Positions 1-26,087 of a stretch of DNA of 32,000 bases are shown here, in pieces. The DNA is from Geotalea uraniireducens Rf4 (GTDB lineage: Bacteria > Desulfobacterota > Desulfuromonadia > Geobacterales > Geobacteraceae), in NCBI RefSeq assembly GCF_000016745.1, contig NC_009483.1:2940001-2972000 (forward strand), written 5' to 3'. Numbering within the stretch: position 1 is the first letter of the stretch; the number at the start of each line of letters is the position of its first letter. The notes beneath the pieces were generated by a model. It saw only the letters and a list, made by a program, of their open reading frames with translations. It was not told where the DNA came from and did no database searches. Both the position numbers and the translations under genes were made by a program.

Positions 1-2
1 CC

Positions 3-1097
3 GGCATGTCCACCGTCAAATCATTGCAGATGGAACCGGTGCTGGAGAAGCGCTACGGCGACTACATGGCCTCTTATCTGGCAGCAGGGTTCTCCACCCG
101 CCAGCTCTCCAACACCTACAATGTAATAGCCAATGCCCTCGAACAATTGATGACCTTCTCCATCCTGATCGTTGGGGCCTTGCTGGTCATGAAAAACGAC
201 GGCTTCACCATCGGTCGACTGGTCGCCTTCCAGATGTTTGCCGGCCGGATGAGTCAGCCGATGCTGCGGCTGGTGGGGTTATGGCAGGAGTTCCAGCAGG
301 CTAATATTGCGGTCAAGCGCCTGGGTGACATCATGGATATGCCGATGGAACCCTATGCCCTGGTTCCAACAAGGAGCTCCTCCAGCCAGGGCGGCGTGGT
401 TGAACTGGCGGACTTAAGCTTTCGCTATTCGGAACAGCATCCCTTTCTCTACCGCAACCTCAACCTCACCTTCAAGGCAGGCCACCTGAGCCTGCTGATG
501 GGGCCATCCGGCTGCGGCAAGAGCACCCTGGCCAAACTGCTGCAAGGCTTTTACCTCCCCACCGACGGCCAGATCAGGATCGACGGCCGGGATATCCGCC
601 ACATGTCGGCCAATGAATTGCGCTCCATTTTTGGCGTCGTCCCCCAGGAAACGGTCCTCTTCTCCGGCACCATCTACGAAAACCTGAACCACGCCAACCC
701 CCATGCCACCTTCCAGGACATCGTCACCGCCTGCCGCCAGGCCGAGATCCATAGCGTGATTGAAGGGCTCCCGCAAGGCTACCAAACGGAAATCGGCGAA
801 CAGGGTGTAGGGCTCTCTGGCGGACAACGGCAGCGGGTTGCCATCGCCCGGGCACTGCTCAAGCGCCCCCGCATCCTCATCTTCGATGAAGCCACCTCCA
901 ACCTGGATCAGCAGACCGCCGAGCACTTTGCCGCAACGGTCAACCAGCTGAAGGGAAAGGTATCGATGATTTTCATCACCCATCAACTGCCCAAGGGGCT
1001 GCAGGTGGATGATGTGTTCAGGTTTGGTCAGCAGCAGAGCCAGCCGCAGATGATGGAGGTGGTTGGGGAGGAGAAGCGGGATGGGGGAGATGAGTGA
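3..1097 (+). CDS. Type I secretion ABC transporter permease/ATPase (HlyB family), 5'-truncated by the window edge
   Basis: Walker [13 protein letters not shown] signature LSGGQRQRVAIARAL, Walker B ILIFDEATSNLD and H-loop ITHQL follow a hydrophobic TMD segment. The frame is open back to position 3. An HlyD gene and an RTX substrate lie in the same locus. Confidence 0.9.
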   Translation, partial: GMSTVKSLQMEPVLEKRYGDYMASYLAAGFSTRQLSNTYNVIANALEQLMTFSILIVGALLVMKNDGFTIGRLVAFQMFAGRMSQPMLRLVGLWQEFQQANIAVKRLGDIMDMPMEPYALVPTRSSSSQGGVVELADLSFRYSEQHPFLYRNLNLTFKAGHLSLLMGPSGCGKSTLAKLLQGFYLPTDGQIRIDGRDIRHMSANELRSIFGVVPQETVLFSGTIYENLNHANPHATFQDIVTACRQAEIHSVIEGLPQGYQTEIGEQGVGLSGGQRQRVAIARALLKRPRILIFDEATSNLDQQTAEHFAATVNQLKGKVSMIFITHQLPKGLQVDDVFRFGQQQSQPQMMEVVGEEKRDGGDE

Positions 1098-1134
1098 GGC
1101 AGTTTCTCTGCAATGATATGAAAAGGAGAAATGA

Positions 1135-1581
1135 ATGTACAAAAAGAAAATCATTTCAATCGCATTTTTTGTCTTGTTCCTTATGTCTTCATACTTCTGT
1201 TTTGCCACCGAAAATGAGTACGTGACTGAATGGATGCCGAGTCGCCAATTTCAGTCTACCTTCGACAGAATGGCAGATAATCGATTCTATACACATTTTG
1301 TGGAGGGAAGAACAATGAATGGAGCAATTCAATACCGTGCAGAGTTCCGGCCATTATTCAAGGAAATGAAAAGATGGTATTCGTTCCATGGGATGTCGGA
1401 TGAGTGGTATGCAAGGCGAAAGGCGGCTTTTGAAAAGGGAGGATTTAAGGAACTATATCACAACTTTTTCCTCGATTTTTCAGGGCAGCATGTTCATCAG
1501 GCATGCTGGGTCGAGCTTTTCGAATCTGCCGAGACACCTCCCCTGGAAAAGAAAGGCGTAAAGCCGTTGATATCATTCTAA
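1135..1581 (+). CDS. Hypothetical exported protein (148 aa)
   Basis: AAGGAG Shine-Dalgarno 5 nt upstream of the ATG. N-terminal signal-peptide-like segment KKKIISIAFFVLFLMSSYFCFA. No family recognised. AT-richer than neighbouring genes. Confidence 0.55.
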   Translation: MYKKKIISIAFFVLFLMSSYFCFATENEYVTEWMPSRQFQSTFDRMADNRFYTHFVEGRTMNGAIQYRAEFRPLFKEMKRWYSFHGMSDEWYARRKAAFEKGGFKELYHNFFLDFSGQHVHQACWVELFESAETPPLEKKGVKPLISF

Positions 1582-1599
1582 ACGGAAAGGAACTCTATA

Positions 1600-2250
1600 A
1601 TGTACATTCAGGTAACCACAAAATGCAATATGCGCTGCGGTCATTGCTGTTATGCCTGTGAACCAGGCAAGGGCGAACATATGCCATTCGAGGTAATTGC
1701 GGAGGTTCTTGCACGATGGGGAAAGAAAATTCTTGATGACAATCAATGGATTGTTATCGGTGGAGGTGAACCAACCTTGCACCCTGATTTTTGGAAAATC
1801 ATAAGCCATGCGCTTTCCTATGGACCTGTTTGGGTTGCTACCAATGGTTCCAATACGGAAGACGCCCTTACGTTGTGCAGAATGGCGAAGCGGGGGGTCC
1901 TTCGGGGGGTATTGAGCCGCGACAAGTGGCATGAACCAATTGATCCCGTTGTTGTCGAAACATTCATGGCTGGTTTGGTTGAACAAGAGTTCGGTTACTG
2001 GACTAATGATCCGAAAAGCTTTGATAGTCGGGAAATCAGGACAGTTAAGAACCCCTATATTGGAGGGCATGCCAAGGCAGGTTTGGGCGGTTGTCCATGT
2101 CGAGGTGTGCATATAAAGCCGGACGGCAACATTTATTCGTGTGGGTGTGAGACAGCGGTTCAGATTGGCACGGTCACAGATGGAATCGCTGAGAAGTATC
2201 AGTGCGTAAGTCTTTATGATGGTTGTTATAAAGAATGGATTGGCAATTAG
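1600..2250 (+). CDS. Small radical SAM enzyme (216 aa) with a C-terminal Cys-rich auxiliary-cluster-like motif
   Basis: CX3CX2C motif at residues 9-16 (CNMRCGHC). GGEPTLHP SAM-binding motif. C-terminal GGCPCRG...YSCGCE cysteine cluster resembling a SPASM/twitch-type motif. Confidence 0.85.
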   Translation: MYIQVTTKCNMRCGHCCYACEPGKGEHMPFEVIAEVLARWGKKILDDNQWIVIGGGEPTLHPDFWKIISHALSYGPVWVATNGSNTEDALTLCRMAKRGVLRGVLSRDKWHEPIDPVVVETFMAGLVEQEFGYWTNDPKSFDSREIRTVKNPYIGGHAKAGLGGCPCRGVHIKPDGNIYSCGCETAVQIGTVTDGIAEKYQCVSLYDGCYKEWIGN

Positions 2251-2306
2251 TGACTATGATTTCTGATACTGCATTGCTTTATCTGTGATCCGTAAGGAGG
2301 TTAAAA

Positions 2307-2876
2307 ATGAAAATTCGAATTAAGTTGATCAGTTACATTGTTATACTGCTTGTTTGTTATGTTAGCTCTTTATCAGTATTTGGCGATCAAGCAAACCCAA
2401 ATCATGGGAAAACGCAGAGTTATCCTTTGACTCCTGAGGGTGTTGTAGAGGCTTACTGCCTTGAATCTTTCAATGGAGCAGGATTGAGTTCAGATACTTG
2501 GGTGAAAATACAAAAATACACCGTATGGGAAGATGGCCCTGGATGGGATACAGCTGTCGTGGTTTCAAATTACAAAATAACAAAAATAAGAGAGTCTTCG
2601 AATACAGCCGAAATAAAAGTTGAATATGAAATTATTGCTGATCTTCCAGCAGATATAAGAGGGTTTAAATTGACAACCGATAGGTTGTCAGTGGCTTTCC
2701 TGTATAAATTGATTAAACAAGAAGGTCACTGGAAAATAAAATCACCCCAGGAGCCACCTCACATTTCAATATCAGCCACAATAGATAAGTTGAATAACTA
2801 TATTTCAGTAAAAAGAGATGCTAGAACAATTAATAATATTAGATCAATTATATATTATCTAAACAATAAAAAATAA
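2307..2876 (+). CDS. Hypothetical exported protein (189 aa), very AT-rich
   Basis: AAGGAGG Shine-Dalgarno. N-terminal hydrophobic signal segment LISYIVILLVCYVSSLSVFG. No family recognised. Lies immediately upstream of the NlpC/P60-like head of the giant gene. Confidence 0.55.
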   Translation: MKIRIKLISYIVILLVCYVSSLSVFGDQANPNHGKTQSYPLTPEGVVEAYCLESFNGAGLSSDTWVKIQKYTVWEDGPGWDTAVVVSNYKITKIRESSNTAEIKVEYEIIADLPADIRGFKLTTDRLSVAFLYKLIKQEGHWKIKSPQEPPHISISATIDKLNNYISVKRDARTINNIRSIIYYLNNKK

Positions 2877-2900
2877 CTTTGACAATAGGAGATTTTACTT

Positions 2901-3320
2901 ATGGGCAATAATGTAATAATCAATGCTAAAAATAAATATGGTAATGGTGGTTATGATTATGGTTATGGTGGTAATGGGACAAAAGATACTGATCGTAATG
3001 GAAAATTGGATATAGATTGTTCTCACTTGGTAAACGATGCACTCCAACAGTCTGGATATGATATACCGTATATGACAACCGGCGAAATGAGGGGATCAAA
3101 AGGAAATAAATATTTTGATAACGTGTCCCCCGATGATGTTAGACCGGGTGATATTATCGTTTTTAAAGGGCATACCGGAGTTGTTGAAAGTTATGACCCT
3201 GAAACAAATACCGGAAAGTTCTTTGGGTCTCAGTCCAAAGGGCCAGCAACAACAGAATTTGGCACGGATACAATAAAAGGGTGGGATAAACCATTTAAGA
3301 TTCTGCGACCAAAAGGAGAT
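2901..3320 (+). other. NlpC/P60-like (papain-fold) cysteine peptidase/amidase domain of the giant protein
   Basis: DCSHLV motif (Cys40) and PGDIIVFKGHTGVV (His91) match the NlpC/P60 Cys-His arrangement (DCSG[FL]V ... GD[LI]VFF..HVGIY). Not verified with an HMM. Confidence 0.65.
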
Positions 3321-6300
3321 GATCCTGATCCTGGTCCTGGTCCTGGTCCTGGTCCTGGTCCTGGTCCTGGTCCTGGTCCTGGTCCTGGTCCTGGTCCTGG
3401 TCCTGGTCCTGGTCCTGGTCCTGGTCCTGGTCCTGGTCCTGGTCCTGGTCCTGGTCCTGGTCCTGGTCCTGGTCCTGGTCCTGGTCCTGGTCCTGGTCCT
3501 GGTCCTGGTCCTGGTCCTGGCCCTGGTCCGAGTCCGGGTCCAAGACCGCGTCCGACCCCAGGCCCGACCCCGGGTCCGAGTATACCCAATAATTATCAGC
3601 CACCCCGTGATCCACTGGTTGTTGACCTGGACCGCGATGGTGTTGAAACGGTCGGCATAGGCTCCCGTGTCATGTTCGATCATAACAACGATCGAATTGC
3701 TACCACTACCGGCTGGATCAAGTCCGATGACGGCCTTCTTGCGCGTGATATCAACGGCAACGGTAAAATCGATTCCGGACTAGAGTTGTTTGGTGACCAG
3801 ACGAAGCTGAGTAATGGTCTTACTGCCTCTAACGGCTTCAGCGCCCTGAGGGATCTGGATGCCAATAACGACGGTAAATTCGACCCCAACGATCCAGCCT
3901 TCGGCGAACTCAGAATCTGGCGCGACCTCAACCAGGACGGCAATTCCCAGGCAGAAGAACTTACCACCCTCTCAGACGCAGGTGTTGCCTATATCGACCT
4001 AGCGGCTGTCAACCGCAATGTCTGGCAGAACGGGAACACCATAGCATCAGAGAGTACACTTACTAAGGAAGACGGCTCTACCGCTACAATAGCAGAGGTG
4101 AACCTTGCCAACAATCCCGCGGACAGCCGTTTTGTCGATACAGTGACAGTTTCTGATGCTGCCATGGCACTTCCGGCACTGCAAGGTTCCGGTAAAGTGC
4201 GTGACCTGCAAGAGGCTGCAACCCTCTCTCCCGCTCTCCAGGAAGTGTTGACACGCTACAGCGCAGCTACGACACGAGCGGAGCAGTTGGCGTTGCTGGA
4301 CGAGCTTCTCCTTACCTGGGCCGATACTTCCGGTATGTCCAAATCCCTTGAGGAACGTGATCCTGCAGCATACAGGGTTGAATATCTGTCATTCGGAAAT
4401 ATACGCAGGAGCGACCATCTGGTTAAAAATACCGCAGGTGGGATTACCTCTGGAACAGTACAAAACGCCGCTGACCCCCTTATCGATGAAACGTATCGCG
4501 GACTGATCGATACCTGGAATAACCGGATTCATATCCTAGAGTCTTTCTATGGCAGCTATTTCTTTGCTGTGCCCGGACAAGCACAGGAAGGAAGCGGCGC
4601 AAGAACCGGTATGTGGGTAGATTACACTGGTAGCACGGCCCTAAATGCTGCGAACAAAAACAAACCTGCCCTAGCGATCAACTATGCGCAGCCTCAACTC
4701 GATATGCTGGGCCAGGATTATCAAGCACTCAGGCAAACGGTGTACGATGGTCTCATTTTACAAACCCGTATGAGAATGTATCTCGAAATTATTGACACTA
4801 CCACAACCTATACTGATACCTATTCGGACATTGACATCTATGATGATTCCTACACTTATACCAATACTTATTCCGGCTCAGATCCAGACATCAAACCAGA
4901 AACCGCGATCGGTTACACTTTCGATGTGACCCGCCTTACCCAAGCATTCGTGGATAAAATTGATGCCGATCCGATTAACGGCATTACCGACCTTATAGAA
5001 TTCAACAGATGCACTAAGGGTCTTCTTGCCGATACCCCGTGGGACGGCGCAACCCTTCTGGAAAATAAGATTCGTTCGCTGCCCATAACGCCGGAACTCC
5101 AGGCCCTCTATCAGGAGTTCAATGTACGGTTCAACGGTATCCAAGGGGGAAACGGCGACGACATTATTCTAGGTGACGATCAGAGTCGCACCATTTACGG
5201 CGGCAACGGCAATGACACGCTCTTTGGAGGAGGCGGAAACGAGATGCTGGTTGGCGGAAACGACAACGATATCATTTCCGGCGGGGCGGGGGACGACCAA
5301 CTTAGGGGCGAGGCGGGTGATGACCAGTACATCTTCGGACGGGGAAGCGGAAATGACAACATAGTCGACGGTCAGGGACGCAACAGTATCCTTTTCTCCG
5401 GCCTCAATCCGGGCGATATCACCGTAACCACACCGAACAGCTATAACGATGACTTCGTCTTTAGCATTAAGGACACGGGAGAAACTCTGCATATTGCAGG
5501 AGGGTGGAACTGGTATTGGTACGAAAATACTTCCATTAACCGCTTCATTTTCGCCGATGGGACGGTCTGGAACAAAGAGAACGCCATTAATGCGGCGACG
5601 TCCTATCCAACGGAAGGCGATGACCTGATCATTGGCAGCCGCCTGACCGATTCTATTGATGGGTTAGGTGGGAATGATACGATAATCGGTCGCAGCGGGG
5701 ATGACGTCATTGACGGGGGCGCCGGCGACGATCTTCTCATCGGTTCCGCTTATGCCTACAACGATTATTATACAGGAGCGCAGCGAATAAATGCCACCGT
5801 CGTCGAGGCCAACGGCAACGACATCTACTATTTCGGCCGCGGCTCCGGCCGCGATACCATTATCGACGGCGACGATACCCAAAACACAGATCGACTCAGG
5901 TTCTTTGAGGACGTTGCTCCCTCTGACATCGCCGTTAGCCGCAATAACGACGACCTGATCCTCACCATCAAGGACACCGGCGACAGCGTCACCATCCGCA
6001 ATCACTTTCTGGAAAATTACCCCGGCGCACCCGAGCATCACGACTACGAGGTGGAATTAATCGAATTCGCCGACGGAACCAAGTGGACCTGGAACACCCT
6101 CCGCGACATGCTGCTGACCGGAACGGACGGCGCGGACACCATTATCGGCTACCGCCAGGACGACGCCATCAGCGGTGGCGCGGGGAACGATTACATCGAC
6201 GCCCGAAGCGGCAACGACGTGATCTCCGGTGGTGACGGCAACGATACCATCTCTGCCGGGCTGGGGGACGACATCATAGACGGCGGCACGGGCGATGACA

Positions 6301-9300
6301 CCATCTACGGCACGGACAGCCATTACTACGATGTTGCCTACGATGCACCGCGAAACGATAACGACACCTACCTGTTCGGTTGGGGCGACGGCCACGACAC
6401 CATTTACAACCGGAACGAGAGCCTGATCAGCAGCGACACAATCAGGTTCAAGGATGGGATCACTGCGAGCGACGTCAGGTTCGAGGGGGTCCTGGGCTAC
6501 AACGAGGACCTGCGCATCGTTCTGGGCGACGGTACAGACAGCATCACGGTGAAGAATTGGTTCGCCAGCGCTTATTACCAGATAGCTCGCATGGAGTTCA
6601 GCGACGGGACGGTGCTGGATGCGGCCTATGTAGCAAGCCACCTGGTCAAGGAGGGTACGGCGGGTAACGACGTCATCTTGGGAAGCCGCCAGAGCGAGAC
6701 CATTTCCGGCTACGCTGGCGACGACACGCTTTACGGCGGGGATGGCAACGACCGACTGGACGGGGGGTCCGGCAATGACATGCTCGCTGGCGGCTACGGC
6801 AACGACACTTACCTCTTCGGTCGCGGCGATGGCCACGATACGGCCTATGAAGGATTCGGCAACGGTTACTATTGGGTCAACTCACCCGATGACGCGATAG
6901 AGTTCAAGGCCGATGTGCTACCGGAAGATGTGATCGTCCGGCGTTTGGGCAACGACATGCTGCTTACCATCAAGGGGAGCGATGATCAACTGACGGTCAA
7001 GGACACCTTCAATGACTATAACGAGAGCAATCGCATCGAACAGGCGCGCTTCGCAGACGGAACGATCTGGGATTATACAACCCTCCTGACACTGGCCCTG
7101 CAAGGGACATCCGACGACGATATCCTGGAGGGCGGAGCGGGGAACGATGTGCTGGATGGAGGGGCCGGAAACGATCTCCTGAGGGGCAGGGATGGAGGGG
7201 ATACCTATCGCTTCGGTCGTGGCTATGGCAACGACGTGATCGAGGAGAGCGGCTGGGGTGGAGTCGATACAGTCGAGTTCCAGGCCGGCATTATCCCGAG
7301 CGATCTCACATTTACTATCGATACGAACGGTGCTCTGTTGATCACCATTAAAGGGAGCGGAGACAGCCTTCGGTTGAGCAACGGCACATATAATATCGAA
7401 CGTTATGTCTTCAGTAACGGAACCACTCTCACTTCGGCCGACATAAACAGGCTGGCTGCCACCCTCCCCAGCGCCGAAAGTATCGTCGGCACAGCAGGGG
7501 ACGACATCTTGGTGGGGAGTGACATCAACAGCACCATCCTTGGGCTTGAAGGCAACGATGTGCTGAGCGGGGCTGACGGCGACGATTGGCTGGAGGGAGC
7601 TGCCGGCAACGATACGCTGGCGGGTAACATGGGTGACGACAATCTCTACGGCGGCGACGGGGACGACGTCCTGAATGGTGGAAGTGGACGCGACTATATC
7701 GAAGCCGGCAACGGCGCAAACGTTATCCGTTTCGAGCAGGGGAGCGGTGTTGACTTTGTCCGGACGCGGCTGGCCGACGGCCAGGCCGATACCATTGAGT
7801 TCGGCGCAGGGATTACCTCGGCCGACCTCCAGGTGCAACTGGGGAATCAACGTTATTGGGATATCCAGCCTGGTGACAGCGGTTATGCGACACTGGTTGT
7901 AGGAACTGGTGACGACGCCTTCCGGATCGAGGTCGACGGCTGGTCCACCGATATCTCCCGTTCCTCTGTCCAGCGGTTCCGCTTCAACGATGGGACCGAG
8001 CTGTCGCTAGAGCAGGTCATAGCCATGAACGACGGCGGTATTGCAGGGTGGCAGTCCGGTTTCGACGGCGACGACATCCTGGTGGGAAGCAATGCGGATG
8101 ATGACATCAACGGCTATGACGGCAACGATGCCATCCGAGCCCGCGCCGGCAACGATTATCTAAATGGTGGCGCCGGCAGCGACCTGATGGACGGCGGCAG
8201 CGGCAACGATTACTTCTATGCCGGTTCAGGGAGCGACGTGCTGGCGGGCGGTAGAGGGGATGATACCCTTATCGGGTCTTCAGGGGAAGATACCTACCTC
8301 TTCAACCTTGGTGACGGCAACGATATCGTCGAAGACAACTGGGACGGCGGCAGAAAGACTATATCCTTTGGTGTGGGGATCGTTCCCGATGCTGTTTCTG
8401 CCATGATGGACGAATATGGCAACCTGCGGCTTTTGGTTGATGGCGGCGTCGGAGGCAGCCTCACGCTGTTACGCTGGTTCCAGCAGGACCGACTCACTAT
8501 GCAGGAACCGCTGACAGTCGAAAGGGTGCAATTCGTGGCCGCCGACGGCAGTGTCAGGATATACGACCTGGCAGGACTTGTGCGGGGTGTGGCCCCCTTG
8601 CTGTCTTCATCCACCTTTACCTCGCCGGTTGCTCTGTTCGCCGATGCGGCCTCCAACGACATTACCCTCGCGGCTCTGCCGGCAGATGGTGACGCGGCGG
8701 TGGCCTATGCCCAGAGCGGCAACCTGTTCGGCACAGCCTCCTATGGTGCCTCATCTGTCCCAACCGACGGCGACGACAGGCTCATGGGGACCGAGTGGGG
8801 CGACAGCCTGGAGGGCGGAGCTGGGAATGATCTTGTCTACGGCCTCGATGGTGATGACTACCTGGATGGCGGCAGTGGCCATGACCGGATAGATGCCGGA
8901 GCGGGCAATGATGCCATTTATGGAGGCAGCGGCAATGATCTGATCATGGCCGGAGAGGGCGATGATTTCGTCCATGCCGGGACAGGCAATGACATCGCCT
9001 ACGGGGGCCTGGGGAACGATACCTTTGTCTTCAACGCCGGCGACGGCCTTTTGACCATCGAGCAGGATTACATGGAGTATGCCGGCGGGGGTGAGTACGG
9101 TGGCGATTTGCCCATGTTTGCGAGTTTTGCTAGCTATGGGGGAGACTACGGCGGCGGTTATGGTGGCGGCACAGAGAGCAACGTGCTCAGCTTCGGGGTA
9201 GGTATTACCCTTTCCGATCTCAGGTTCTCCGAACGGGACGGCTATCTGATCATCGACATCCCCTCCACCGGAGACCAGGTGAGGCTTGCGGGTTACAATC

Positions 9301-12300
9301 CGGACAGCCCAACCCTGACCGACGTCGTGGATAGCTATGTATTCGCCGACGGCAGCGTGGCTACCCCGCAGGACATCCTCGACGCAGGGCTATCCTCGGT
9401 GGGAGCGGAAGGAGACGATTACTTCACCGGTACGGCGGGTAACAACATTGTGGAAACCGGAGGGGGAAATGACTACCTCGTCGGCGGATTCGGAAACGAC
9501 CGTCTTATGGGTGGAAGCGGGGACGATACCTATGAATTCAACCTCGGCGATGGGGTGGATACCATCGTGGACTTTAGTTCCCCCGGCATGGAGAACAGTG
9601 TCTATTTCGGCTACGGCATATCCCCTGACTCCATTTGGACCGAGGTCGAAAATGGCGCACTGGTGCTGAGGGTGGGTGACGGTGGCGACGCCATCCGGTT
9701 CGAGGGTTTCGATCCCAATATACCGGACATGCCGCAGCCGGTGGGGCGCTTCGATTTCTGGGACGGCTCAAGCATGAGCTTTTCCGACCTGCTCAGCCGT
9801 GGATTCGAGATAGTCGGCACGCCGGAGCAAGATACGCTCATCGGCACTTCCGGTGACGACAGGATTCGTGGGCTTGCCAGCGATGATCTACTCAAAGGCA
9901 ACGCCGGTGACGACACCTATCTATTCCAGGCAGGCGATGGGGTTGACTCCATCGACGACGTCTCCCGACCGGGAGAATGGAACACCGTCGTGCTCCCGGA
10001 CGGCATGGCTCCCTGGGAAGTTTACCTTACCCACGACCCGGAGAAAGGAGAACTAGTCCTGAAAAGATGGGGTTCTGACGACGAGATCAGGATGACCGGG
10101 TTTGACCGGTTGGATCCCTTCGGCAACCGGGCGGTGGAATATTTTCAGTTTGGACAGAACGGGCAGATTTTCTCCTATGACGAGTTGCTCAACTTGAACG
10201 GATTTGAAATCAGGGGAACCGACGGCAACGATACCCTGCTGGGAACCGCAACGTACGACTATATTCGCGGAGGTGACGGCGACGATCTGATCATCAGCGG
10301 CACCGGTGGCGACTATCTTCGCGGAACTGGCGGTAACGATACCTATGTGTTCAATCGTGGAGATGGTGAAGTGGAGATAAGTGACTTTCTGGAAGAAGGC
10401 ATCGGCAACGTGCTCCGCTTCGGTCCCGGCATCACGCCGGAAGACTTGCGCAGACACCTTCGATTTGAGGATGGTTATTTTATCATCGCCTTCGACAACG
10501 GCGACACCATTTATCTTGATGGTTTCGATCCCAATGACGTGGACAACAGCCCTCGATCAGTGGACACCTTTGCCTTCGACGACGGCACGACTCTTTCCTT
10601 CGCTGAACTGGCACGCTACACGTTTGTAGTCGAGGGAGACAACCTCGACAACCTGCTGACAGGGACGAATCTGGACGACCGGCTCTACGGCTACGACGGC
10701 TCGGACAATCTGGACAGTGGCACCGGAGAGGATGTCCTCACCGGCGGGACCGGTACAGATGTCCTTCTTGGCGGCGGCGGTCGAGACGCTTATATCTTTA
10801 ACCTCGGCGATGGCGTAGATACCATAACAGATACCGCCGAAAACGGTATAGGCAATATCCTCAGTTTCGGCCAGGGAATTACCATCAACGACCTTTCCCT
10901 CTCGCTGACCGGAACGACTTTGACCATCGGTTACGGTGCCTACGGTGATGCCGTCATCATTGAAAATTTCGATCCAACCGGACTCAATGGAACCACGGTT
11001 ATCGACACCTTCGAATTCTCCGACGGCAGCGCCATCAGCTACCGGGAACTGGTCAACCATGCTCCCGTGGCGGCAGAGCCGCTACCAGACCAGATCGCTA
11101 CCCAGGACCAGCCCTTTGTCTTCCAGTTGCCGGAAACCACCTTCAGCGATGCCGACGGCGACCAGTTGACCTATCGCCTCTCGGTGTCCGGCTATGAAAC
11201 CCCGTCGGACTGGCTTTCCTTCGACCCGGCAACCCGCACCATCAGCGGCACACCAGGCAACTCGGATGTCGGAGCGCTGACAGTGACGGTGTCTGCAATC
11301 GATCCGGTAGGGGCCACGACCGGCCAATCCTTTATCCTGAACGTGGAAAATGTCAACGATGCCCCGGTAGTCACCGCGCCGTTTACCGACCAGCTTGCCG
11401 TGGAGGACCAAACCTTTGAGTTGATGCTCCCGCCCGGTTTGTTCGCTGATATCGACGCAGGAGATTCCTTGACCCTTTCCGCCACACTGGCAGACGGTTC
11501 GGCGCTGCCGTCCTGGCTTAATTTCGATGCTGCCACCGGAACCTTCACCGGCACCCCCGACAACAGTAACATTGGCAAGCTGCAGTTGTCCGTAACCGCT
11601 ACCGACCAGTCAGGTGCTAATGTCACAGCTGCTTTCGCCCTTGAGGTAGTCAACACCAACGATGCACCGATGGTTGTTGACGCTATTCCCGCACAGACCG
11701 CACTGGAAGACAGCAATTTCAGCTTCACGCTGCCTGCCACGGCCTTCAACGACATTGACGCCGGTGACGCCCTGACGCTCTCCGCCGCACTATCCGACGG
11801 TTCTACCCTGCCGGCATGGCTGCAGTTCGATGCTGCAACCGGAACCTTCGCCGGCACGCCGGGAAACGATCAGGTCGGCAACCTGAATATTACGGTTACC
11901 GCCACGGACCGAGCCGGAACGACCGCCGGCAGCAGCTTCGCCCTCACTGTCCTTAACACCAATGACACACCGGTAACGGTAACACCGCTGACGGCACAGA
12001 ACGTCGTCGAAGATCAGACCTTCAGCTACCAGATCCCCGCCGATACCTTCAAGGACATCGACAGCTGCGACAGTTTGACCCTCTCCGCCACGCTGGCGGA
12101 CGGTTCGGCTTTGCCGTCATGGCTTTCGTTCGACGCACCAACCGGTATGCTGACCGGCACCCCCGGCAACGACCAGGTGGGAACCGTGAACCTTTCGGTA
12201 ACGGCCACCGATCTGTCCGGCGCAACCATCTCTACCGGACTCAGCCTGACCGTGGACAATGTCAACGACGCACCGGTAGTGACCGGCGCCATCACCGACC

Positions 12301-13697
12301 AGATTGCCCAGGGAGGCCAGCCATTCAGCCTCGCCATCCCCACCAACCTGTTCAGCGACGTAGATAAGGGCAACATCCTTACCATTACCGCAAACAGTAG
12401 CGACGGCACCAACCTGCCTGCCTGGCTGACCTATGACCAGGTAAGCGGCATCCTGTCCGGCACACCTGACAGTTCCGCAATCGGCAGCTATGGTGTAAAA
12501 CTGACCGCCACCGACCAATCCGGCTCACAGGTCGACACTTCCTTCAACATTAGCGTAACCAGTGTGCCCGCCGGCAACAGCGCACCAGTAGTAACACCGG
12601 ATACAGCCGAACTCATAGAAGATCATTGCCCCCCCTATGTGACAGGCAACGTCCTTGCCAACGACAGTGATCCGGATGCCGAAGACAGCCTCACTGTTGC
12701 CGACCCGGGCTTTGTGCGGGGCGAGTATGGCTACCTGGGGCTCTCCAGTGATGGCAAGTACGGATATATGGTCAATAACCGGTCCTATGACGTGCAGTCA
12801 CTGGGACGCACCGCCCAACAGGTGGAACATTTCAGCTACACCGTCACCGACGGCGAGGCAGAAGTTGCCTCTTCCCTCGACATCACCATCAAGGGCACCA
12901 ACGATGCCCCAGTGGTGGCCGAGCACCTGTCCGACCAGCGCGTCAAGAATAACAGGGCCTTCAGCTTCGCCATCGACTCCGACAGTTTTGTCGACATCGA
13001 TAAGGGAGATGCTCTGACCTACACTGCCACTCTGGCCGATGGCAAGGCACTGCCGGACTGGCTGAAGTTCAATGATAAAACCGGTATTTTCTCCGGAACC
13101 GCTCCCAAGAATGCGGGCTACCTGGATATCAAGGTCACCGCCACCGACAGAGTTGAAGCCACCGGCAGCACAGAAGGCAGCCTCTCCGTTTCCGACACCT
13201 TCGAGATTAGCTTCGGCAAAAGCAGGAAGGGGTCATCATGCCGTGACGAGGACGACCATAAGGACAAATTGGACTGGATGAAAAAGGCTGGATCTGATCG
13301 ACATGAAAATGAACGGGATAGCTACAGGTCCGACCATGACGATGACCGTGACATCCGACGCAAGGATGATCATTCGGCATCGACCTCGAAAGAGTACCTT
13401 GACAGCAACCAGCTTGATGACTACCTGCAGGAGGTTGATCAGCCCTCTCCCGGAACCGACCGCGAGATTGCCGCACGCTGGCAGGCAGTCAGTGATGCGT
13501 TAAAGCAGGAACTAGCCGATTTCGACAACGACTTCGGGAACCATCGCAAACAATCCGGCGACTTCTCCTCCATGAATTATGACCACAGCTTCGGCTTTGG
13601 CAGGGGCATTGCCGATAACGGCCTGCTGACCGCCGGCAGCGGTACCGACCTGAAGGACTTCAAGGGTCTGAAGGAAGGGATGCGGAGATTGGGATAA
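2901..13697 (+). CDS. Giant (3598 aa) RTX / cadherin-like Ca-binding protein, presumed T1SS substrate, with an NlpC/P60-like N-terminal domain
   Basis: Single uninterrupted ORF. It holds many GGxGxD nonapeptide runs, repeated RTX-associated beta modules ending in F[AS]DGT, tandem cadherin/He_PIG-like repeats (LP...F.D.D.GD.LTYSA.L.DGS.LP.WL.FD..TGT..GTP), a VCBS-like segment and a non-repetitive C-terminus. It is flanked by HlyB and HlyD genes. Confidence 0.92.
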   Translation: MGNNVIINAKNKYGNGGYDYGYGGNGTKDTDRNGKLDIDCSHLVNDALQQSGYDIPYMTTGEMRGSKGNKYFDNVSPDDVRPGDIIVFKGHTGVVESYDPETNTGKFFGSQSKGPATTEFGTDTIKGWDKPFKILRPKGDDPDPGPGPGPGPGPGPGPGPGPGPGPGPGPGPGPGPGPGPGPGPGPGPGPGPGPGPGPGPGPGPGPGPGPSPGPRPRPTPGPTPGPSIPNNYQPPRDPLVVDLDRDGVETVGIGSRVMFDHNNDRIATTTGWIKSDDGLLARDINGNGKIDSGLELFGDQTKLSNGLTASNGFSALRDLDANNDGKFDPNDPAFGELRIWRDLNQDGNSQAEELTTLSDAGVAYIDLAAVNRNVWQNGNTIASESTLTKEDGSTATIAEVNLANNPADSRFVDTVTVSDAAMALPALQGSGKVRDLQEAATLSPALQEVLTRYSAATTRAEQLALLDELLLTWADTSGMSKSLEERDPAAYRVEYLSFGNIRRSDHLVKNTAGGITSGTVQNAADPLIDETYRGLIDTWNNRIHILESFYGSYFFAVPGQAQEGSGARTGMWVDYTGSTALNAANKNKPALAINYAQPQLDMLGQDYQALRQTVYDGLILQTRMRMYLEIIDTTTTYTDTYSDIDIYDDSYTYTNTYSGSDPDIKPETAIGYTFDVTRLTQAFVDKIDADPINGITDLIEFNRCTKGLLADTPWDGATLLENKIRSLPITPELQALYQEFNVRFNGIQGGNGDDIILGDDQSRTIYGGNGNDTLFGGGGNEMLVGGNDNDIISGGAGDDQLRGEAGDDQYIFGRGSGNDNIVDGQGRNSILFSGLNPGDITVTTPNSYNDDFVFSIKDTGETLHIAGGWNWYWYENTSINRFIFADGTVWNKENAINAATSYPTEGDDLIIGSRLTDSIDGLGGNDTIIGRSGDDVIDGGAGDDLLIGSAYAYNDYYTGAQRINATVVEANGNDIYYFGRGSGRDTIIDGDDTQNTDRLRFFEDVAPSDIAVSRNNDDLILTIKDTGDSVTIRNHFLENYPGAPEHHDYEVELIEFADGTKWTWNTLRDMLLTGTDGADTIIGYRQDDAISGGAGNDYIDARSGNDVISGGDGNDTISAGLGDDIIDGGTGDDTIYGTDSHYYDVAYDAPRNDNDTYLFGWGDGHDTIYNRNESLISSDTIRFKDGITASDVRFEGVLGYNEDLRIVLGDGTDSITVKNWFASAYYQIARMEFSDGTVLDAAYVASHLVKEGTAGNDVILGSRQSETISGYAGDDTLYGGDGNDRLDGGSGNDMLAGGYGNDTYLFGRGDGHDTAYEGFGNGYYWVNSPDDAIEFKADVLPEDVIVRRLGNDMLLTIKGSDDQLTVKDTFNDYNESNRIEQARFADGTIWDYTTLLTLALQGTSDDDILEGGAGNDVLDGGAGNDLLRGRDGGDTYRFGRGYGNDVIEESGWGGVDTVEFQAGIIPSDLTFTIDTNGALLITIKGSGDSLRLSNGTYNIERYVFSNGTTLTSADINRLAATLPSAESIVGTAGDDILVGSDINSTILGLEGNDVLSGADGDDWLEGAAGNDTLAGNMGDDNLYGGDGDDVLNGGSGRDYIEAGNGANVIRFEQGSGVDFVRTRLADGQADTIEFGAGITSADLQVQLGNQRYWDIQPGDSGYATLVVGTGDDAFRIEVDGWSTDISRSSVQRFRFNDGTELSLEQVIAMNDGGIAGWQSGFDGDDILVGSNADDDINGYDGNDAIRARAGNDYLNGGAGSDLMDGGSGNDYFYAGSGSDVLAGGRGDDTLIGSSGEDTYLFNLGDGNDIVEDNWDGGRKTISFGVGIVPDAVSAMMDEYGNLRLLVDGGVGGSLTLLRWFQQDRLTMQEPLTVERVQFVAADGSVRIYDLAGLVRGVAPLLSSSTFTSPVALFADAASNDITLAALPADGDAAVAYAQSGNLFGTASYGASSVPTDGDDRLMGTEWGDSLEGGAGNDLVYGLDGDDYLDGGSGHDRIDAGAGNDAIYGGSGNDLIMAGEGDDFVHAGTGNDIAYGGLGNDTFVFNAGDGLLTIEQDYMEYAGGGEYGGDLPMFASFASYGGDYGGGYGGGTESNVLSFGVGITLSDLRFSERDGYLIIDIPSTGDQVRLAGYNPDSPTLTDVVDSYVFADGSVATPQDILDAGLSSVGAEGDDYFTGTAGNNIVETGGGNDYLVGGFGNDRLMGGSGDDTYEFNLGDGVDTIVDFSSPGMENSVYFGYGISPDSIWTEVENGALVLRVGDGGDAIRFEGFDPNIPDMPQPVGRFDFWDGSSMSFSDLLSRGFEIVGTPEQDTLIGTSGDDRIRGLASDDLLKGNAGDDTYLFQAGDGVDSIDDVSRPGEWNTVVLPDGMAPWEVYLTHDPEKGELVLKRWGSDDEIRMTGFDRLDPFGNRAVEYFQFGQNGQIFSYDELLNLNGFEIRGTDGNDTLLGTATYDYIRGGDGDDLIISGTGGDYLRGTGGNDTYVFNRGDGEVEISDFLEEGIGNVLRFGPGITPEDLRRHLRFEDGYFIIAFDNGDTIYLDGFDPNDVDNSPRSVDTFAFDDGTTLSFAELARYTFVVEGDNLDNLLTGTNLDDRLYGYDGSDNLDSGTGEDVLTGGTGTDVLLGGGGRDAYIFNLGDGVDTITDTAENGIGNILSFGQGITINDLSLSLTGTTLTIGYGAYGDAVIIENFDPTGLNGTTVIDTFEFSDGSAISYRELVNHAPVAAEPLPDQIATQDQPFVFQLPETTFSDADGDQLTYRLSVSGYETPSDWLSFDPATRTISGTPGNSDVGALTVTVSAIDPVGATTGQSFILNVENVNDAPVVTAPFTDQLAVEDQTFELMLPPGLFADIDAGDSLTLSATLADGSALPSWLNFDAATGTFTGTPDNSNIGKLQLSVTATDQSGANVTAAFALEVVNTNDAPMVVDAIPAQTALEDSNFSFTLPATAFNDIDAGDALTLSAALSDGSTLPAWLQFDAATGTFAGTPGNDQVGNLNITVTATDRAGTTAGSSFALTVLNTNDTPVTVTPLTAQNVVEDQTFSYQIPADTFKDIDSCDSLTLSATLADGSALPSWLSFDAPTGMLTGTPGNDQVGTVNLSVTATDLSGATISTGLSLTVDNVNDAPVVTGAITDQIAQGGQPFSLAIPTNLFSDVDKGNILTITANSSDGTNLPAWLTYDQVSGILSGTPDSSAIGSYGVKLTATDQSGSQVDTSFNISVTSVPAGNSAPVVTPDTAELIEDHCPPYVTGNVLANDSDPDAEDSLTVADPGFVRGEYGYLGLSSDGKYGYMVNNRSYDVQSLGRTAQQVEHFSYTVTDGEAEVASSLDITIKGTNDAPVVAEHLSDQRVKNNRAFSFAIDSDSFVDIDKGDALTYTATLADGKALPDWLKFNDKTGIFSGTAPKNAGYLDIKVTATDRVEATGSTEGSLSVSDTFEISFGKSRKGSSCRDEDDHKDKLDWMKKAGSDRHENERDSYRSDHDDDRDIRRKDDHSASTSKEYLDSNQLDDYLQEVDQPSPGTDREIAARWQAVSDALKQELADFDNDFGNHRKQSGDFSSMNYDHSFGFGRGIADNGLLTAGSGTDLKDFKGLKEGMRRLG
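3330..3520 (+). repeat. Perfect hexanucleotide microsatellite (CCTGGT)31 encoding (Pro-Gly)n, inside the giant CDS
   Basis: Direct reading gives 31 consecutive identical CCTGGT units from 3330 to 3515, plus 5 further in-phase matching nucleotides (3516-3520). The first deviation is at 3521 (ggc codon). A degenerate Pro-rich tail with mixed codons runs to about 3585. Confidence 0.98.
5140..11056 (+). repeat. About a dozen tandem modules within the giant CDS, each an RTX nonapeptide run plus an RTX-associated beta domain
   Basis: Recurrent pattern GG.G.D.L.G...D.Y.F..G.G.D.I.D......D.I.F..GI...D......DL.I......D.[IL].[IV]..[WF]......IE.F.F.DGT. I counted 12 module ends by eye. Confidence 0.8.
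11057..12565 (+). repeat. Five tandem cadherin-like / putative Ig (He_PIG-type) repeats of about 95-100 aa
   Basis: Each repeat ends in V.N.ND.PV. DNA-level similarity is visible between repeats, e.g. gacggttcggc.ctgccgtc.tggct near 11490, 11795 and 12100. Confidence 0.8.
12577..12918 (+). other. VCBS-like segment of the giant protein
   Basis: NSAPVV...GNVLANDSDPD..DSLTV.......G.Y.Y.V........L......F.YTVTDG......L.ITI.GTNDAPV is the typical VCBS pattern. A sixth cadherin-like repeat follows (12919-13215). Confidence 0.6.
13216..13697 (+). other. Non-repetitive C-terminal region of the giant protein: charged D/H/R/K-rich stretch plus presumed T1SS secretion signal
   Basis: T1SS substrates carry an uncleaved C-terminal signal (established). 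No sequence consensus exists to confirm it here. Confidence 0.4.
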
Positions 13698-13730: not shown

Positions 13731-13787
13731 AGTCCCTTAGAAAAATTATTTGCATGTTTTTTGCGAAGAATTTTTCGTGAAGGGACT
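13731..13787 (+). terminator. Compound hairpin between the giant gene and the glycosyltransferase gene (possible attenuator)
   Basis: AGTCCCTT (13731-13738) pairs with AAGGGACT (13780-13787). An inner pair is GAAAAATT (13740-13747) with AATTTTTC (13769-13776). There is no clean 3' U-run. Confidence 0.3.
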
Positions 13788-13820
13788 TATCCCGTTCATA
13801 GGGGTTACGATGAGGAAACC

Positions 13821-15050
13821 ATGAGCCGTTTTTTGCTGGCATGGGCATTGGGTGGCAATTACGGCCATTTGGGTAAATTGGCACCACTGACGAGAGCACT
13901 CAAGGATAGTGGACATGATGTGGCCCTTGCCGTCAGGGATCTTTCCACTCTGGGGCAGTTCCTTGACCGTTCCGAGGCGACTTTTCTACAGGCGCCTGTT
14001 GACGCCCCCCCAAGATGGAGGCTACAGCCAGCGAGCTTTGCCGATATCCTTGAAGAAAGCGGTTTCGGCAATCCTGACCGGCTTGATGGGCTGGTACGAG
14101 GTTGGCACGGCCTCTTTGATCTCTACCGACCCGACGTGGTGGTGGCGGAATATGCGCCGTCAGCCGTATTTGCCGCTAAGCTGGCAGGTATACCCTGTCT
14201 GCGTATGGATACCGGCTTCGCTATTCCGCCGGAGATGAGCCCCTATCCCTGCTTCCGACCTTGGCTCAAGCTACGAAGGGAACAGCTGTTGGGAAAAGAG
14301 ATGAACATGCTGCAGGCCATGAACCAAGTTCGCAAGGACTATGGCCATTCTGCGCATGAGTATCTCTTTCAGGCAGTGCAGGCCAACCTGACCCTGCTGA
14401 CAACTGTGCCGGAGCTTGATCACTACCCGGCACGCAAGGGAGGTTGCTATATCGGCCCGCTGTTGAATCTGGACACAGGGCAGAATGTCCCCTGGCCTGG
14501 AGGAAATGGAAAGCGGATATTTGCCTACCTGCGCCCTTTTCCAGAACTTGGGCTGGTACTGGATGGGCTCAGGGACTGTGGCAGTCAAACCATTGCCGTG
14601 GTTCCCGGCATCGACCAGGAGCTTTGCGACAGGTATAGCGGCAGCAATCTTTCGATCACCAGCCAAACTGCGGCATTGCGGCCTATCCTGACCAAAGCGG
14701 ATCTGGTCGTTTCCCATACCGGCCATGGCCTGACATCGGCGGCACTGCTTGCAGGGGTACCGACATTGGCAATACCGACCCAGATCGAGCAGATGATGCT
14801 GATGAGAACCATCGAACGAATTGGTATAGGTATTGGTATCACCCCCAATGCACTACGGGCACATTTTCAGGAAGTCCTGCAAAAAACCCTTGCCGATCAA
14901 GAGATTACCCACCGAACACAAGAGATTGCAGCCAAGTACAGTCGGTATGATGAAAAGAGAACCTTGGCTCGTCTAATAAAAACCATTGAGCGACTGCCTG
15001 AAGCCATCAGAAACAGGCAGCCCGGCAAACAGGAGAAAATAAACAGATGA
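13821..15050 (+). CDS. GT-B fold glycosyltransferase (GT1 / UDP-glycosyltransferase-MGT-like)
   Basis: N-terminal GGNYGHLGKLAPLTRALKDSGHDVALA and C-terminal VSHTGHGLTSAALLAGVPTLAIPTQIEQ match GT1/Glyco_tran_28_C-type donor-binding motifs. The start is placed at the ATG at 13821, preceded by GAGGA. The track ORF starts at a TTG at 13761. Confidence 0.8.
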   Translation: MSRFLLAWALGGNYGHLGKLAPLTRALKDSGHDVALAVRDLSTLGQFLDRSEATFLQAPVDAPPRWRLQPASFADILEESGFGNPDRLDGLVRGWHGLFDLYRPDVVVAEYAPSAVFAAKLAGIPCLRMDTGFAIPPEMSPYPCFRPWLKLRREQLLGKEMNMLQAMNQVRKDYGHSAHEYLFQAVQANLTLLTTVPELDHYPARKGGCYIGPLLNLDTGQNVPWPGGNGKRIFAYLRPFPELGLVLDGLRDCGSQTIAVVPGIDQELCDRYSGSNLSITSQTAALRPILTKADLVVSHTGHGLTSAALLAGVPTLAIPTQIEQMMLMRTIERIGIGIGITPNALRAHFQEVLQKTLADQEITHRTQEIAAKYSRYDEKRTLARLIKTIERLPEAIRNRQPGKQEKINR

Positions 15051-16465
15051 ATGAGCAGCACCCACCAAAACCTTCCCGCTTGGCGAGGTTGTCCTCTTGG
15101 CTGTTCAGTGCCGCCGAAACAGATTCGTTGGACTTTGCCCCTTCCATGGTTCAATTACAGGAGAAGCCGCCGGCACCGCTGGGACGGACCGTGTTGAAGG
15201 TTGTAGCGATACTGTTCTGTTGCGTCCTGCTTTGGGCTGTTCTGGGGCGACTGGATATCGTGGCAGTTGCGGAAGGTAAGCTGGTACCGAAGACTTACTT
15301 GAAGATCGTGCAGCCTTCTGAACAGGGAATCGTGGAGGAGATCATGGTCAAAGAGGGGCAGTCGGTTACCAAGGGGCAACTCCTGATGCGGATGGATGCG
15401 GTACTCTCCACTGCGGAAGGAAAATCCCTGGCTTCGGAATTCCACCGTTTGCGGCTTGCCCTGCGCCGGATCGATGCAGAACTGGCAGGCAGACCGCTTA
15501 CCAGGGAGAGCAATGACCCGCCTGATCTGTTCGCGCAGGTATCAGCACAATATCATACCAACCGTCAGGCCCATCAGAGCGCCATTGACGAGCAGCAAAG
15601 CGTACTGGAGCGCGCCAGCCAGGATATGGCCTCTGCCCGGGAAATCAAGGCAAAGCTTGAGCAGACACTCCCCCATTACCGTGAGATGGAAAAGGCCTAC
15701 GAGGATCTTTTCAAAGTAGGAACAGTGGCAAAGCTTCAATTTTCAGAGAAGCAACGTGATCGCATTGAGAAGGAACATGACCTTAAGACCCAGGAGTACA
15801 CCCTAAAAAGCAATCAAGCACTGATGGCCCAAACTCTGAAAAATATGGCTCAGCTTACTGCCGACAACCGGCGACAGTTGCAGACAGAACGAGTTGAGAC
15901 AATGGGACAGCTTGAGAAGATCACACAGGAGTTGGCCAAGCAGCAGCACCGTCACCAGCTGCTGGAATTGAAGGCCTCCAACGACGGAGTTGTGAAGGAT
16001 TTGGCAACACATACCGCCGGTACGGTGGTAACGCCGGGGACAATCCTGATGACCCTGGTACCGAAGGAAGAACCGCTGCAGGCTGAGGTATGGGTTAGCA
16101 ACGAAGATATCGGCTTCGTGCGTCCTGATCAACCGGTGAAGGTCAAACTTTCTGCCTTTAGCTTCCAGAAATACGGCATGTTGGACGGAAAAGTGGAGCA
16201 GGTCAGTGCCGATTCCAGCGAAAATCCAAACCAGAGCGGAACGATCGATTCGACCACGTCAGTTCCCCCCAGGGACCTAAGCCGACTGCGCTACAAAACC
16301 CTGATCGCTCTTTCCACCCAGCAACTCATTGCCGACGGACAGAAGCACAAATTGACACCGGGCATGCAGGTATCGGCGGAGATCAAGCTCGGTACGAGAT
16401 CGGTGGTGGAATATCTGTTCTCGCCGGTGACGAAGGCCTTCCATGAAGCGGGGCGAGAGCGGTAA
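15047..16465 (+). CDS. HlyD-family type I secretion periplasmic adaptor (MFP)
   Basis: N-terminal TM segment, a long coiled-coil region (residues about 120-300) and a C-terminal beta-barrel ending in GM.V.AEI..G.RSV.EY..SP. The ATG overlaps the glycosyltransferase stop (ATGA at 15047-15050). Confidence 0.92.
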   Translation: MNEQHPPKPSRLARLSSWLFSAAETDSLDFAPSMVQLQEKPPAPLGRTVLKVVAILFCCVLLWAVLGRLDIVAVAEGKLVPKTYLKIVQPSEQGIVEEIMVKEGQSVTKGQLLMRMDAVLSTAEGKSLASEFHRLRLALRRIDAELAGRPLTRESNDPPDLFAQVSAQYHTNRQAHQSAIDEQQSVLERASQDMASAREIKAKLEQTLPHYREMEKAYEDLFKVGTVAKLQFSEKQRDRIEKEHDLKTQEYTLKSNQALMAQTLKNMAQLTADNRRQLQTERVETMGQLEKITQELAKQQHRHQLLELKASNDGVVKDLATHTAGTVVTPGTILMTLVPKEEPLQAEVWVSNEDIGFVRPDQPVKVKLSAFSFQKYGMLDGKVEQVSADSSENPNQSGTIDSTTSVPPRDLSRLRYKTLIALSTQQLIADGQKHKLTPGMQVSAEIKLGTRSVVEYLFSPVTKAFHEAGRER

Positions 16466-25926: not shown

Positions 25927-25954
25927 GTTCGACGTTCGACGTTCGACGTTCGAC
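25927..25954. repeat. (GTTCGAC)4 heptanucleotide tandem array
   Basis: Four perfect copies plus a partial GTT, starting 7 nt after the pstB stop codon. Confidence 0.97.
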
Positions 25955-25973
25955 GTTGAAAAACCTTAAACCT

Positions 25974-26071: not shown

Positions 26072-26087
26072 AAAACATGAGGTTACC

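Follow-up and report, generated by a model that had tools for sequence, protein, structure and literature searches.

An in-frame hexanucleotide microsatellite in the gene for a giant RTX protein of Geotalea uraniireducens, and the Pro-X spacer that it encodes

The DNA analysed here (the window) is a stretch of 32,000 nucleotides from the genome of Geotalea uraniireducens Rf4 (contig NC_009483.1, positions 2,940,001 to 2,972,000 of the forward strand). All positions given below are those of the window, unless stated otherwise. It contains a 3598-codon open reading frame (ORF) for a giant RTX protein, and near the 5' end of this frame lies a long perfect microsatellite built on the hexamer CCTGGT. 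Four parts can be told apart in the protein: an NlpC/P60-type head (residues 1–141), an array of Pro-X dipeptides (residues 142–227), a FrpC-type self-processing module (SPM), and an RTX/cadherin-like body. The frame is open from an ATG at 2901, and an AGGAG motif lies ten bases upstream of this codon. The features are listed in Table 1.

Table 1. Features of the RTX locus, with their positions in the window
Feature	Positions	Strand	Basis
HlyB-type type I secretion ABC transporter gene, 3' part	6..1097	+	NCBIfam TIGR01846 (5.6e-98); Pfam ABC_tran, ABC_membrane
Exported 189-aa protein, candidate immunity protein for the head	2307..2876	+	Homologs beside head homologs
3598-aa ORF, RTX protein holding the tract	2901..13697	+	ORF list, translation, Pfam
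NlpC/P60-type cysteine peptidoglycan hydrolase domain (predicted), aa 1–141, 34–40 % GC	2901..3323	+	Pfam, family profile
Full Pro-X dipeptide array, 43 hexamers, aa 142–227	3324..3581	+	Unit-by-unit parse
Perfect microsatellite (CCTGGT)31	3330..3515	+	Regular-expression scan
Two extra Pro-Gly units, CCTGGC and CCTGGT (one synonymous change)	3516..3527	+	
Non-repeat spacer IPNNYQPPRD, last residue Asp237	3582..3611	+	
Predicted scissile Asp237-Pro238 bond (GAT CCA)	3609..3614	+	FrpC SPM alignment
FrpC-type self-processing module, Pfam PF26745 SPM, aa 238–417	3612..4151	+	PDB match
Glycosyltransferase gene between the RTX gene and hlyD	13761..15050	+	Pfam EryCIII-like_C, Glyco_trans_4_4
HlyD-type type I secretion membrane-fusion protein	15047..16465	+	Pfam HlyD_3 (4.5e-19), HlyD_D23

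The array was parsed unit by unit. A single CCTGAT unit precedes the perfect run, and when the two units that follow this run are counted, the tract holds 33 Pro-Gly units in total. Nine non-identical Pro-X hexamers then continue to 3581 (CCGAGT, CCGGGT, CCAAGA, CCGCGT, CCGACC, CCAGGC, CCGACC, CCGGGT, CCGAGT). At the protein level the array reads PD-(PG)33-PS-PG-PR-PR-PT-PG-PT-PG-PS. It starts at codon position 1, in frame 1 of the ORF, and the frame is intact throughout. From Pro142 to Asp237 there are 96 residues, and across 86 of these every second one is proline. When the regular-expression scan was set to the TCCTGG phase, 32 units were obtained (3329–3520), and Tandem Repeats Finder reported 36.5 copies with a 97 % match over 3323–3541. 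The preliminary description of this DNA had placed 31 identical units at 3330–3527. The count of 31 was right, but not the end, as the perfect run stops at 3515. The codons ggc, ccg, cca, and ccc that it had listed from 3516–3585 were all found there. It had also held that the tract is neutral to the frame, and this is so: the unit is of 6 nt and in frame, so gain or loss of units leaves the frame unbroken. A phase-variable contingency locus would have a unit that is not a multiple of 3, or a repeat in a promoter position; the unit here is of 6 nt and lies in frame. Some ORFs cross the tract in other frames or on the other strand (e.g., 3096–3683 on the minus strand and 3319–3660 on the plus strand), and were set aside as stop-free artefacts of the repeat.

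In this genome, CCT makes up 14.5 % of the Pro codons and GGT 19.3 % of the Gly codons. The probability of 31 independent CCT-GGT choices is ~1e-48, and a chance origin is therefore excluded. No second site with three or more units of CCTGGT was found in the 5.14-Mb genome. Genome-wide, (CCTGGT)31 is the third-longest perfect tandem array, and it is the sole long one within a large ORF.

After the array and the short non-repeat spacer comes the SPM. This module matched the PDB entries 6sjw (E = 1.4e-49, chain residues 1–178) and 6sjx (E = 2.9e-49), and shares 53 % identity with its FrpC counterpart. The precomputed Pfam label of the deposited gene product is likewise PF26745 'SPM'. The alignment with the FrpC SPM starts at exactly Pro238, in PPRD/PLVVDLDRDGVET, and Asp237-Pro238 aligns with the scissile bond D414-P415 of FrpC. 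The roles of the residues in the FrpC SPM were taken from PMC7078468. The stabilising Trp pair W272/W340, which corresponds to W451/W519 of FrpC, is retained. The acidic residues of the calcium sites are also kept (D242, D244, D246, E249, D283, E295, D299, D320, D342, and E353), and D579 of FrpC is replaced by Glu. The SPM of FrpC and ApxIVA folds on binding calcium, breaks the Asp-Pro bond, and leaves an aspartyl anhydride, which can make an isopeptide bond with a nearby lysine (PMC7078468). Moreover, the SPMs of several species cleave when unrelated proteins are fused to them N-terminally (PMC12538545). By this homology, the present protein would be cleaved in a calcium-dependent manner at Asp237-Pro238.

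The array ends 10 residues ahead of this predicted self-cleavage site. Since the predicted cut lies past the tract, the spacer most probably stays on the released toxin head as a C-terminal tail and is not a permanent stalk, a consequence that the preliminary description had missed. We compared the present site with 112 SPM-bearing relatives. Short proline-rich spacers recur among them, and the array described here is an extreme: six or more Pro-X units before the cut site were found in 4 of the 112 (maximum 14; none near 43). The residue before the conserved Pro is Asp in 80 of the 112 and Ser in 27. The 27 modules with Ser in place of Asp may not cleave by the known anhydride chemistry.

A sister strain is represented by a metagenome contig (L044, Ga0209639_1000281) that is 96.8 % identical to window positions 1–3325 and encodes a head protein that is 98 % identical. 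The homology ends at base 3325, two bases into the first repeat unit. From its start, the tract of the sister reads CCAAGT, CCAAAT, CCAAGT×8, CCGAGC×4, CCGAGT, CCAAGT, CCGAGC×7, CCGAGT×4, CCGAAT, and CCGAGT×10, after which the contig ends. Thus at least 38 Pro-Ser/Pro-Asn units, in homogeneous sub-blocks, stand in place of Pro-Gly. In the right-hand contig of the sister metagenome (L053; Ga0209639_1002060, with a 3349-aa product), the homology is back from window position 5071, at 96 % identity. In a more distant ortholog (L049; body about 76 % identical), the sequence opens within an array of Pro-Ser/Pro-Arg units, at least 28 of them; this array is followed by PRPRPNPGPNPGPSIPNPYVPPRDPLVVDLDGDG, a tail clearly homologous to the one here. 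In the sister contig and in L049, too, no stop interrupts the frame within the tract. Two short-read assemblies that encode an identical body begin 3–4 units ahead of the CCTGGC variant.

The strains therefore differ in the repeat unit (Pro-Gly versus Pro-Ser) and not in number alone. The units were wholly replaced while the flanks gained about 3 % substitutions. Each strain shows blocks of identical hexamers, a pattern typical of repeated local expansion. In this lineage, a long Pro-X array is conserved at the site. The preliminary description had looked to related genomes for differences in copy number and had missed the change of unit: the unit sequence does differ, and the copy numbers elsewhere are lower bounds only (at least 38 and at least 28).

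We also considered whether recombination had joined a recently shared head cassette to a diverged body, with the tract marking the breakpoint. This was rejected, as identity is again 96 % at 5071–5570, and the low identity farther on is patchy inside the RTX blocks. Compared with the right-hand contig of the sister, the RTX body (5571–13570) is 66–97 % identical per 500 nt, with 0.36 synonymous differences per site, and the flanks are 97–99 % identical. The patchy divergence of the RTX body suggests gene conversion or recombination among its internal repeat modules.

The sequence of the unit itself is prone to slippage. CCTGG is a quasi-palindrome (CCWGG), and a single strand of the 186-nt tract folds into one long hairpin of G-C pairs and T-T mismatches (−41.4 kcal/mol; z = −9.6 versus dinucleotide shuffles). 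The Pro-Ser tract of the sister folds weakly (−13.9 kcal/mol; z = −1.9). Genes for MutS and MutL are present in the genome. In E. coli, MutS-dependent repair is limited to loops of about 4 bases or fewer, so six-base slippage loops probably escape mismatch repair. Perfect arrays of 18 nt or more comprise, genome-wide, 13 with hexamer, 167 with heptamer (up to 29 copies), and 16 with nonamer units, and none with units of 1–5 nt, which agrees with this limit. A recent origin by slippage, as proposed in the preliminary description, agrees with the identical units, the minority codons, and the quasi-palindromic, hairpin-forming character of the repeat. Elsewhere in the window, at 25927–26076 after pstB, arrays of GTTCGAC (×4.4) and AACTTCG (×13.7) were noted. 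At genome positions 2028600–2028719, another perfect hexamer array, (AGAGGA)20, lies in frame inside a 258-codon open frame on the minus strand.

The head gave a match to Pfam PF00877 at residues 18–92 (25.8 bits; cut-off 23). A HMMER search with head residues 1–143 against 1.84 billion representative proteins returned 265 relatives. In many of these the head is N-terminal in multidomain proteins that also have M23-like and lysozyme-like parts, and two (P0029 and P0055) have the head-linker-SPM-RTX order seen here. The family profile of the head matches MepS/Spr (4e-12) and CwlO (6e-11), and also LytE and RipA. In the alignment of 41 members, D39, C40, D84, H91, and G114 are invariant, and C40 (IDCSHLV) and H91 (GHTGVV) align with the Cys and His motifs of Spr. 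On account of these profile matches and the invariant Cys40 and His91 (the catalytic Cys and His), the head is assigned to the peptidoglycan peptidases of the NlpC/P60 type, and this activity is predicted for it. As to a third polar catalytic residue, the His of Spr 'FVHAS' aligns with 'FFGSQ' here and gives no clear partner, and the model that AlphaFold built from the single sequence is too poor to point to one (predicted local distance difference test score 41.7). The ratio of non-synonymous to synonymous differences per site (pN/pS) against the sister strain is 0.12; hence, the head is under purifying selection. A PDB search with the single head sequence returned kelch-repeat matches only, which were discarded as spurious, and the family profile was needed instead. 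A contig scan with the head yielded only distant Clostridia NlpC/P60 proteins, and no giant protein carrying the head was found by word-based search.

The gene directly upstream encodes a 189-aa protein, the N-terminus of which resembles a signal peptide. Its pN/pS against the sister is 0.22, and it lies beside the head in the sister strain as well. In one other genome (G008), a homolog of this ORF is found directly upstream of a stand-alone head homolog (E = 2.6e-26). In another (G024), a homolog lies directly downstream of an Rhs/YD-repeat protein with a head-like C-terminal domain (E = 2.7e-19), which by sequence is the canonical layout of a polymorphic toxin and its immunity protein. This Rhs/YD-repeat protein (L004; G024:C12:8845-12015) ends in the head-like NlpC/P60 domain, with the 189-aa ORF homolog after it; the same predicted toxin/immunity pair is therefore used on two different delivery chassis.

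Other relatives carry other heads on the SPM-RTX chassis, with short spacers. Ntox44 (1.7e-13) and AHH nuclease (1e-6) domains were found, as were class-3 lipase, PLA2-like, glucosaminidase, lysozyme-like, and membrane-helix-rich heads. Polymorphic toxins are recognized by varied toxin domains on a conserved carrier and by a neighbouring gene that moves along with the toxin domain, and both were found here. From the homology of the head and from this gene context, namely the travelling 189-aa partner and the swapped heads on the chassis, we infer that the locus encodes an antibacterial toxin exported by a type I secretion system (T1SS), with a warhead that would be freed by the SPM. FrpC/FrpD has been proposed, on other grounds, as a T1SS antibacterial effector with its immunity protein by Bayer-Santos et al. 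(PMC6759196). One genome of the same taxonomic order (G027) has an identical lysozyme-like head plus SPM twice on contig C1 (L014 and L024, at ~1.21 and 1.22 Mb), one copy on a 3461-aa frame and the other on a 588-aa frame.

Pfam analysis of the 3598-aa ORF gave HemolysinCabind (3.8e-92), HCBP_related (4.5e-80), He_PIG (1.7e-112), Big_9, Cadherin_4/5, and NLPC_P60. With Pfam and NCBIfam, 24 RTX nonapeptide stretches, six HCBP_related modules, six He_PIG units, and cadherin-like and VCBS domains were counted. Because of the RTX nonapeptide repeats and the neighbouring genes for an HlyB-type ATP-binding cassette (ABC) transporter and an HlyD-type protein, the protein is classed as a T1SS substrate, and its export is predicted. 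Besides the RTX gene, the ABC and HlyD genes enclose the glycosyltransferase gene, a small gene for a radical SAM protein, and two small ones for exported proteins. The glycosyltransferase gene is kept in the sister strain and missing from the L049 ortholog locus (L049 10294-10393). It was considered whether this gene is tied to Ser-containing linkers. The idea was dropped, as the gene occurs with both Pro-Gly and Pro-Ser and is absent in L049, which has Pro-Ser.

The region from the end of the ABC gene to the tract (1100–3323) is AT-rich, with 28–50 % GC versus 53–64 % in the RTX body. It holds the genes for an exported protein of 148 aa, for a radical SAM protein of 216 aa, and for the candidate immunity protein of 189 aa, and also the coding region of the head; each of these is 96–99 % conserved in the sister. 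Downstream of the locus, a Mutator-family (IS256-like) transposase gene (18938–20152) is absent from the otherwise collinear contig of the sister strain, and is therefore a recent insertion of an insertion sequence. A second DDE transposase was noted at 27059–28234.

Taken together, we think it probable, with some reserve, that the tract is a genuine slippage-made microsatellite that encodes a fast-turnover Pro-X spacer between the hydrolase head and the SPM of a T1SS RTX protein. Replication slippage would build the in-frame microsatellite and thereby a low-complexity spacer of about 96 residues (residues 142–237). The (CCTGGT)31 block would have arisen very recently, when a single quasi-palindromic unit expanded; single strands of this unit would fold into stable slipped hairpins. 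The spacer would link the NlpC/P60 'warhead' to the FrpC-type SPM and uncouple the folding of the one from the folding of the other. Outside the cell, the SPM would bind calcium and cut the chain at Asp237-Pro238, and the head would leave with the spacer as its C-terminal tail. The visible constraint on the tract is limited to a proline at every second position with a small or polar residue between; within it, the type and number of units would turn over freely and quickly. Slippage would be tolerated because the exact sequence and length of the spacer are weakly constrained. Of all this, the layout of the parts, the homologies, the between-strain turnover, and the potential for hairpins were observed, and the calcium-dependent cut, an antibacterial effect of the head, and the function as a spacer are inferred. 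An extended chain measures about 3 Å per residue. Fully extended, the 96-residue spacer would reach about 300 Å; in solution it would be much shorter and flexible, Pro-Gly especially.

Some points weigh against this reading. The count of 31 units comes from one finished assembly, and the evidence for turnover is between strains and not clonal. The sister tract is cut by contig ends on both sides, so that strains are compared by sequence and their lengths are lower bounds. Calcium-dependent cleavage, secretion, and cell-wall hydrolysis are all deduced from homology, and the head alignment yields no unambiguous third catalytic residue. Finally, three diverged loci have all kept a long Pro-X array, which may be a sign that its length is under selection, and not merely tolerated.

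The last point leads to an idea that was in essence put forward in the preliminary description, as a tuning of linker length and so of the reach or threading distance of the head: the tract would be a frame-preserving contingency locus for adaptive tuning of length and chemistry. Slippage would alter the tether from the head to the reactive Asp end or to the RTX body, and selection would keep variants of a particular reach, e.g., for clip-and-link attachment or for access to the wall of a target cell. It would explain why the three diverged loci all still have a long array, of at least 28 to 43 units, when other family members have short spacers, and why the unit type was swapped wholesale between strains with flanks that differ by about 3 %. 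Length is also known to matter in other dipeptide or tripeptide repeat stalks, among them the Ser-Asp repeats of the Clf/Sdr proteins of staphylococci (PMC3794999). However, a spacer of a few residues is enough for most SPM-RTX relatives, which argues that a long tether is no general requirement, and the tract lengths in the other strains are lower bounds only. We regard such tuning as unlikely, though worth keeping in mind.

A bolder version of the contingency-locus idea concerns the tail after cleavage. The freed hydrolase would carry a tail of about 100 residues with almost no side chains and a reactive aspartyl anhydride end. This tail might fix the enzyme covalently to amines on the surface of a rival, or thread an outer-membrane pore as the disordered translocation domains of colicins do, and strains would re-tune its length and chemistry by slippage so as to match or escape their targets. 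We consider this a long shot.

The copy number or the perfect homogeneity could also be an artefact of assembly or consensus, the tract being real and 31 not its true or only number. All short-read assemblies of the locus (L044, L049, L050, and L051) break at the tract, as the preliminary description had expected of such a repeat, and a single finished assembly spans it. However, the genome is a single closed contig with 100 % completeness, two independent runs agree on where the tract ends on its 3' side, and the frame is intact across it. An artefact of this kind is, in our view, quite improbable. Least probable of all is that the Pro-X stretch is a tether for retention, with the folded head held in the periplasm or cytoplasm, the stretch spanning a TolC-type channel as in LapA-type adhesins, and the RTX body kept at the surface until the Asp-Pro bond breaks: the layout of LapA is alike (after its N-terminal domain, about 77 flexible residues thread a TolC-like pore and lead to a cleavage site; bioRxiv 10.1101/198937) and 96 extended residues would be long enough for the conduit, but no LapG-type protease (PF06035) was found in the complete genome and no dialanine motif (Ala-Ala) in residues 1–237, most relatives are without a long linker, their nuclease, RNase-like, lipase, and lysozyme toxin heads would make no sense as plugs, and an immunity-like partner with an apparent signal peptide points to a toxic activity.

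The closest known systems are FrpC/FrpA of Neisseria meningitidis and ApxIVA of Actinobacillus pleuropneumoniae, which are likewise T1SS RTX clip-and-link proteins with an internal SPM acting at an Asp-Pro bond. Like FrpC, the present protein has an N-terminal domain ahead of its cut site, and the gene of a small partner lies upstream, as with frpD. The head here is, however, an NlpC/P60 hydrolase by homology and not the N-domain of FrpC, the partner is not FrpD-like by sequence, and the body has He_PIG and cadherin-like domains. A 43-unit Pro-X microsatellite stands directly before the cut site here, and none has been described for FrpC or ApxIVA. The retention module of the T1SS adhesins LapA and MpIBP is also alike, since there too a giant RTX protein begins with a domain that a flexible linker joins to a cleavage site; in the present case there is neither LapG nor a dialanine site, the predicted cleavage is autocatalytic and extracellular, and the head is a predicted enzyme with an immunity-like partner.

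Polymorphic toxins (Rhs and contact-dependent inhibition systems) resemble the locus in having interchangeable toxin domains on a conserved carrier, and the same pair of head and 189-aa protein occurs in the Rhs locus of G024. Here, the putative toxin stands at the N-terminus, as the C-terminus is where the T1SS signal lies, and the candidate immunity gene is upstream. Release would be by a calcium-triggered SPM, versus the usual pre-toxin peptidase or the autoproteolysis of the Rhs cage. With the contingency loci of Haemophilus, Neisseria, and Campylobacter, the locus shares slippage-prone tandem repeats inside the gene of a secreted or surface protein. It differs from them in that the 6-nt unit never shifts the frame, so the length and sequence change and there is no ON/OFF switching.

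Among repeat spacers, the collagen-like GXX region of Bacillus BclA is an in-frame repeat stalk of strain-variable length. The Ser-Asp region of staphylococcal ClfA/Sdr proteins is likewise a frame-preserving, low-complexity repeat spacer that varies between strains and lies beside a functional domain, with a glycosyltransferase gene in the same locus (PMC3794999). Like the array here, both are long di- or tripeptide repeats that are made from short tandem DNA units. ClfA/Sdr and BclA are, however, permanent Gram-positive stalks anchored to the cell wall, whereas the present protein is a predicted Gram-negative T1SS substrate with the spacer upstream of a self-cleavage site. Here, the repeat is also a perfect hexamer, its unit type is swapped between strains, and nothing points to glycosylation of Pro-Gly.

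The head and the tract are absent from the annotated product, because the deposited gene call (3341 aa) starts at Met258 (window position 3672), inside the SPM. For the same reason, no exact match to the 3598-aa protein was found in the protein collection. As the tract breaks assemblies and the gene call drops the head, annotation may systematically overlook toxin heads of this kind.

Repeat spacers encoded in frame were known already, and so were self-cleaving RTX proteins of the FrpC type. Their combination in a T1SS protein, i.e., an extreme, strain-specific Pro-X microsatellite 10 residues before an Asp-Pro cut, together with a head that resembles an antibacterial cell-wall hydrolase and its candidate immunity partner, has not been described. 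Should the tail's length or chemistry matter for delivery or 'linking', the locus would be a rare kind of hypermutable tuning, one that alters geometry and does not turn a gene on or off. The purpose of clip-and-link in RTX proteins has been a standing question since FrpC was described. If the length or the chemistry of the tail affects delivery or covalent 'linking', the locus would offer a natural length series with which this purpose may be tested.

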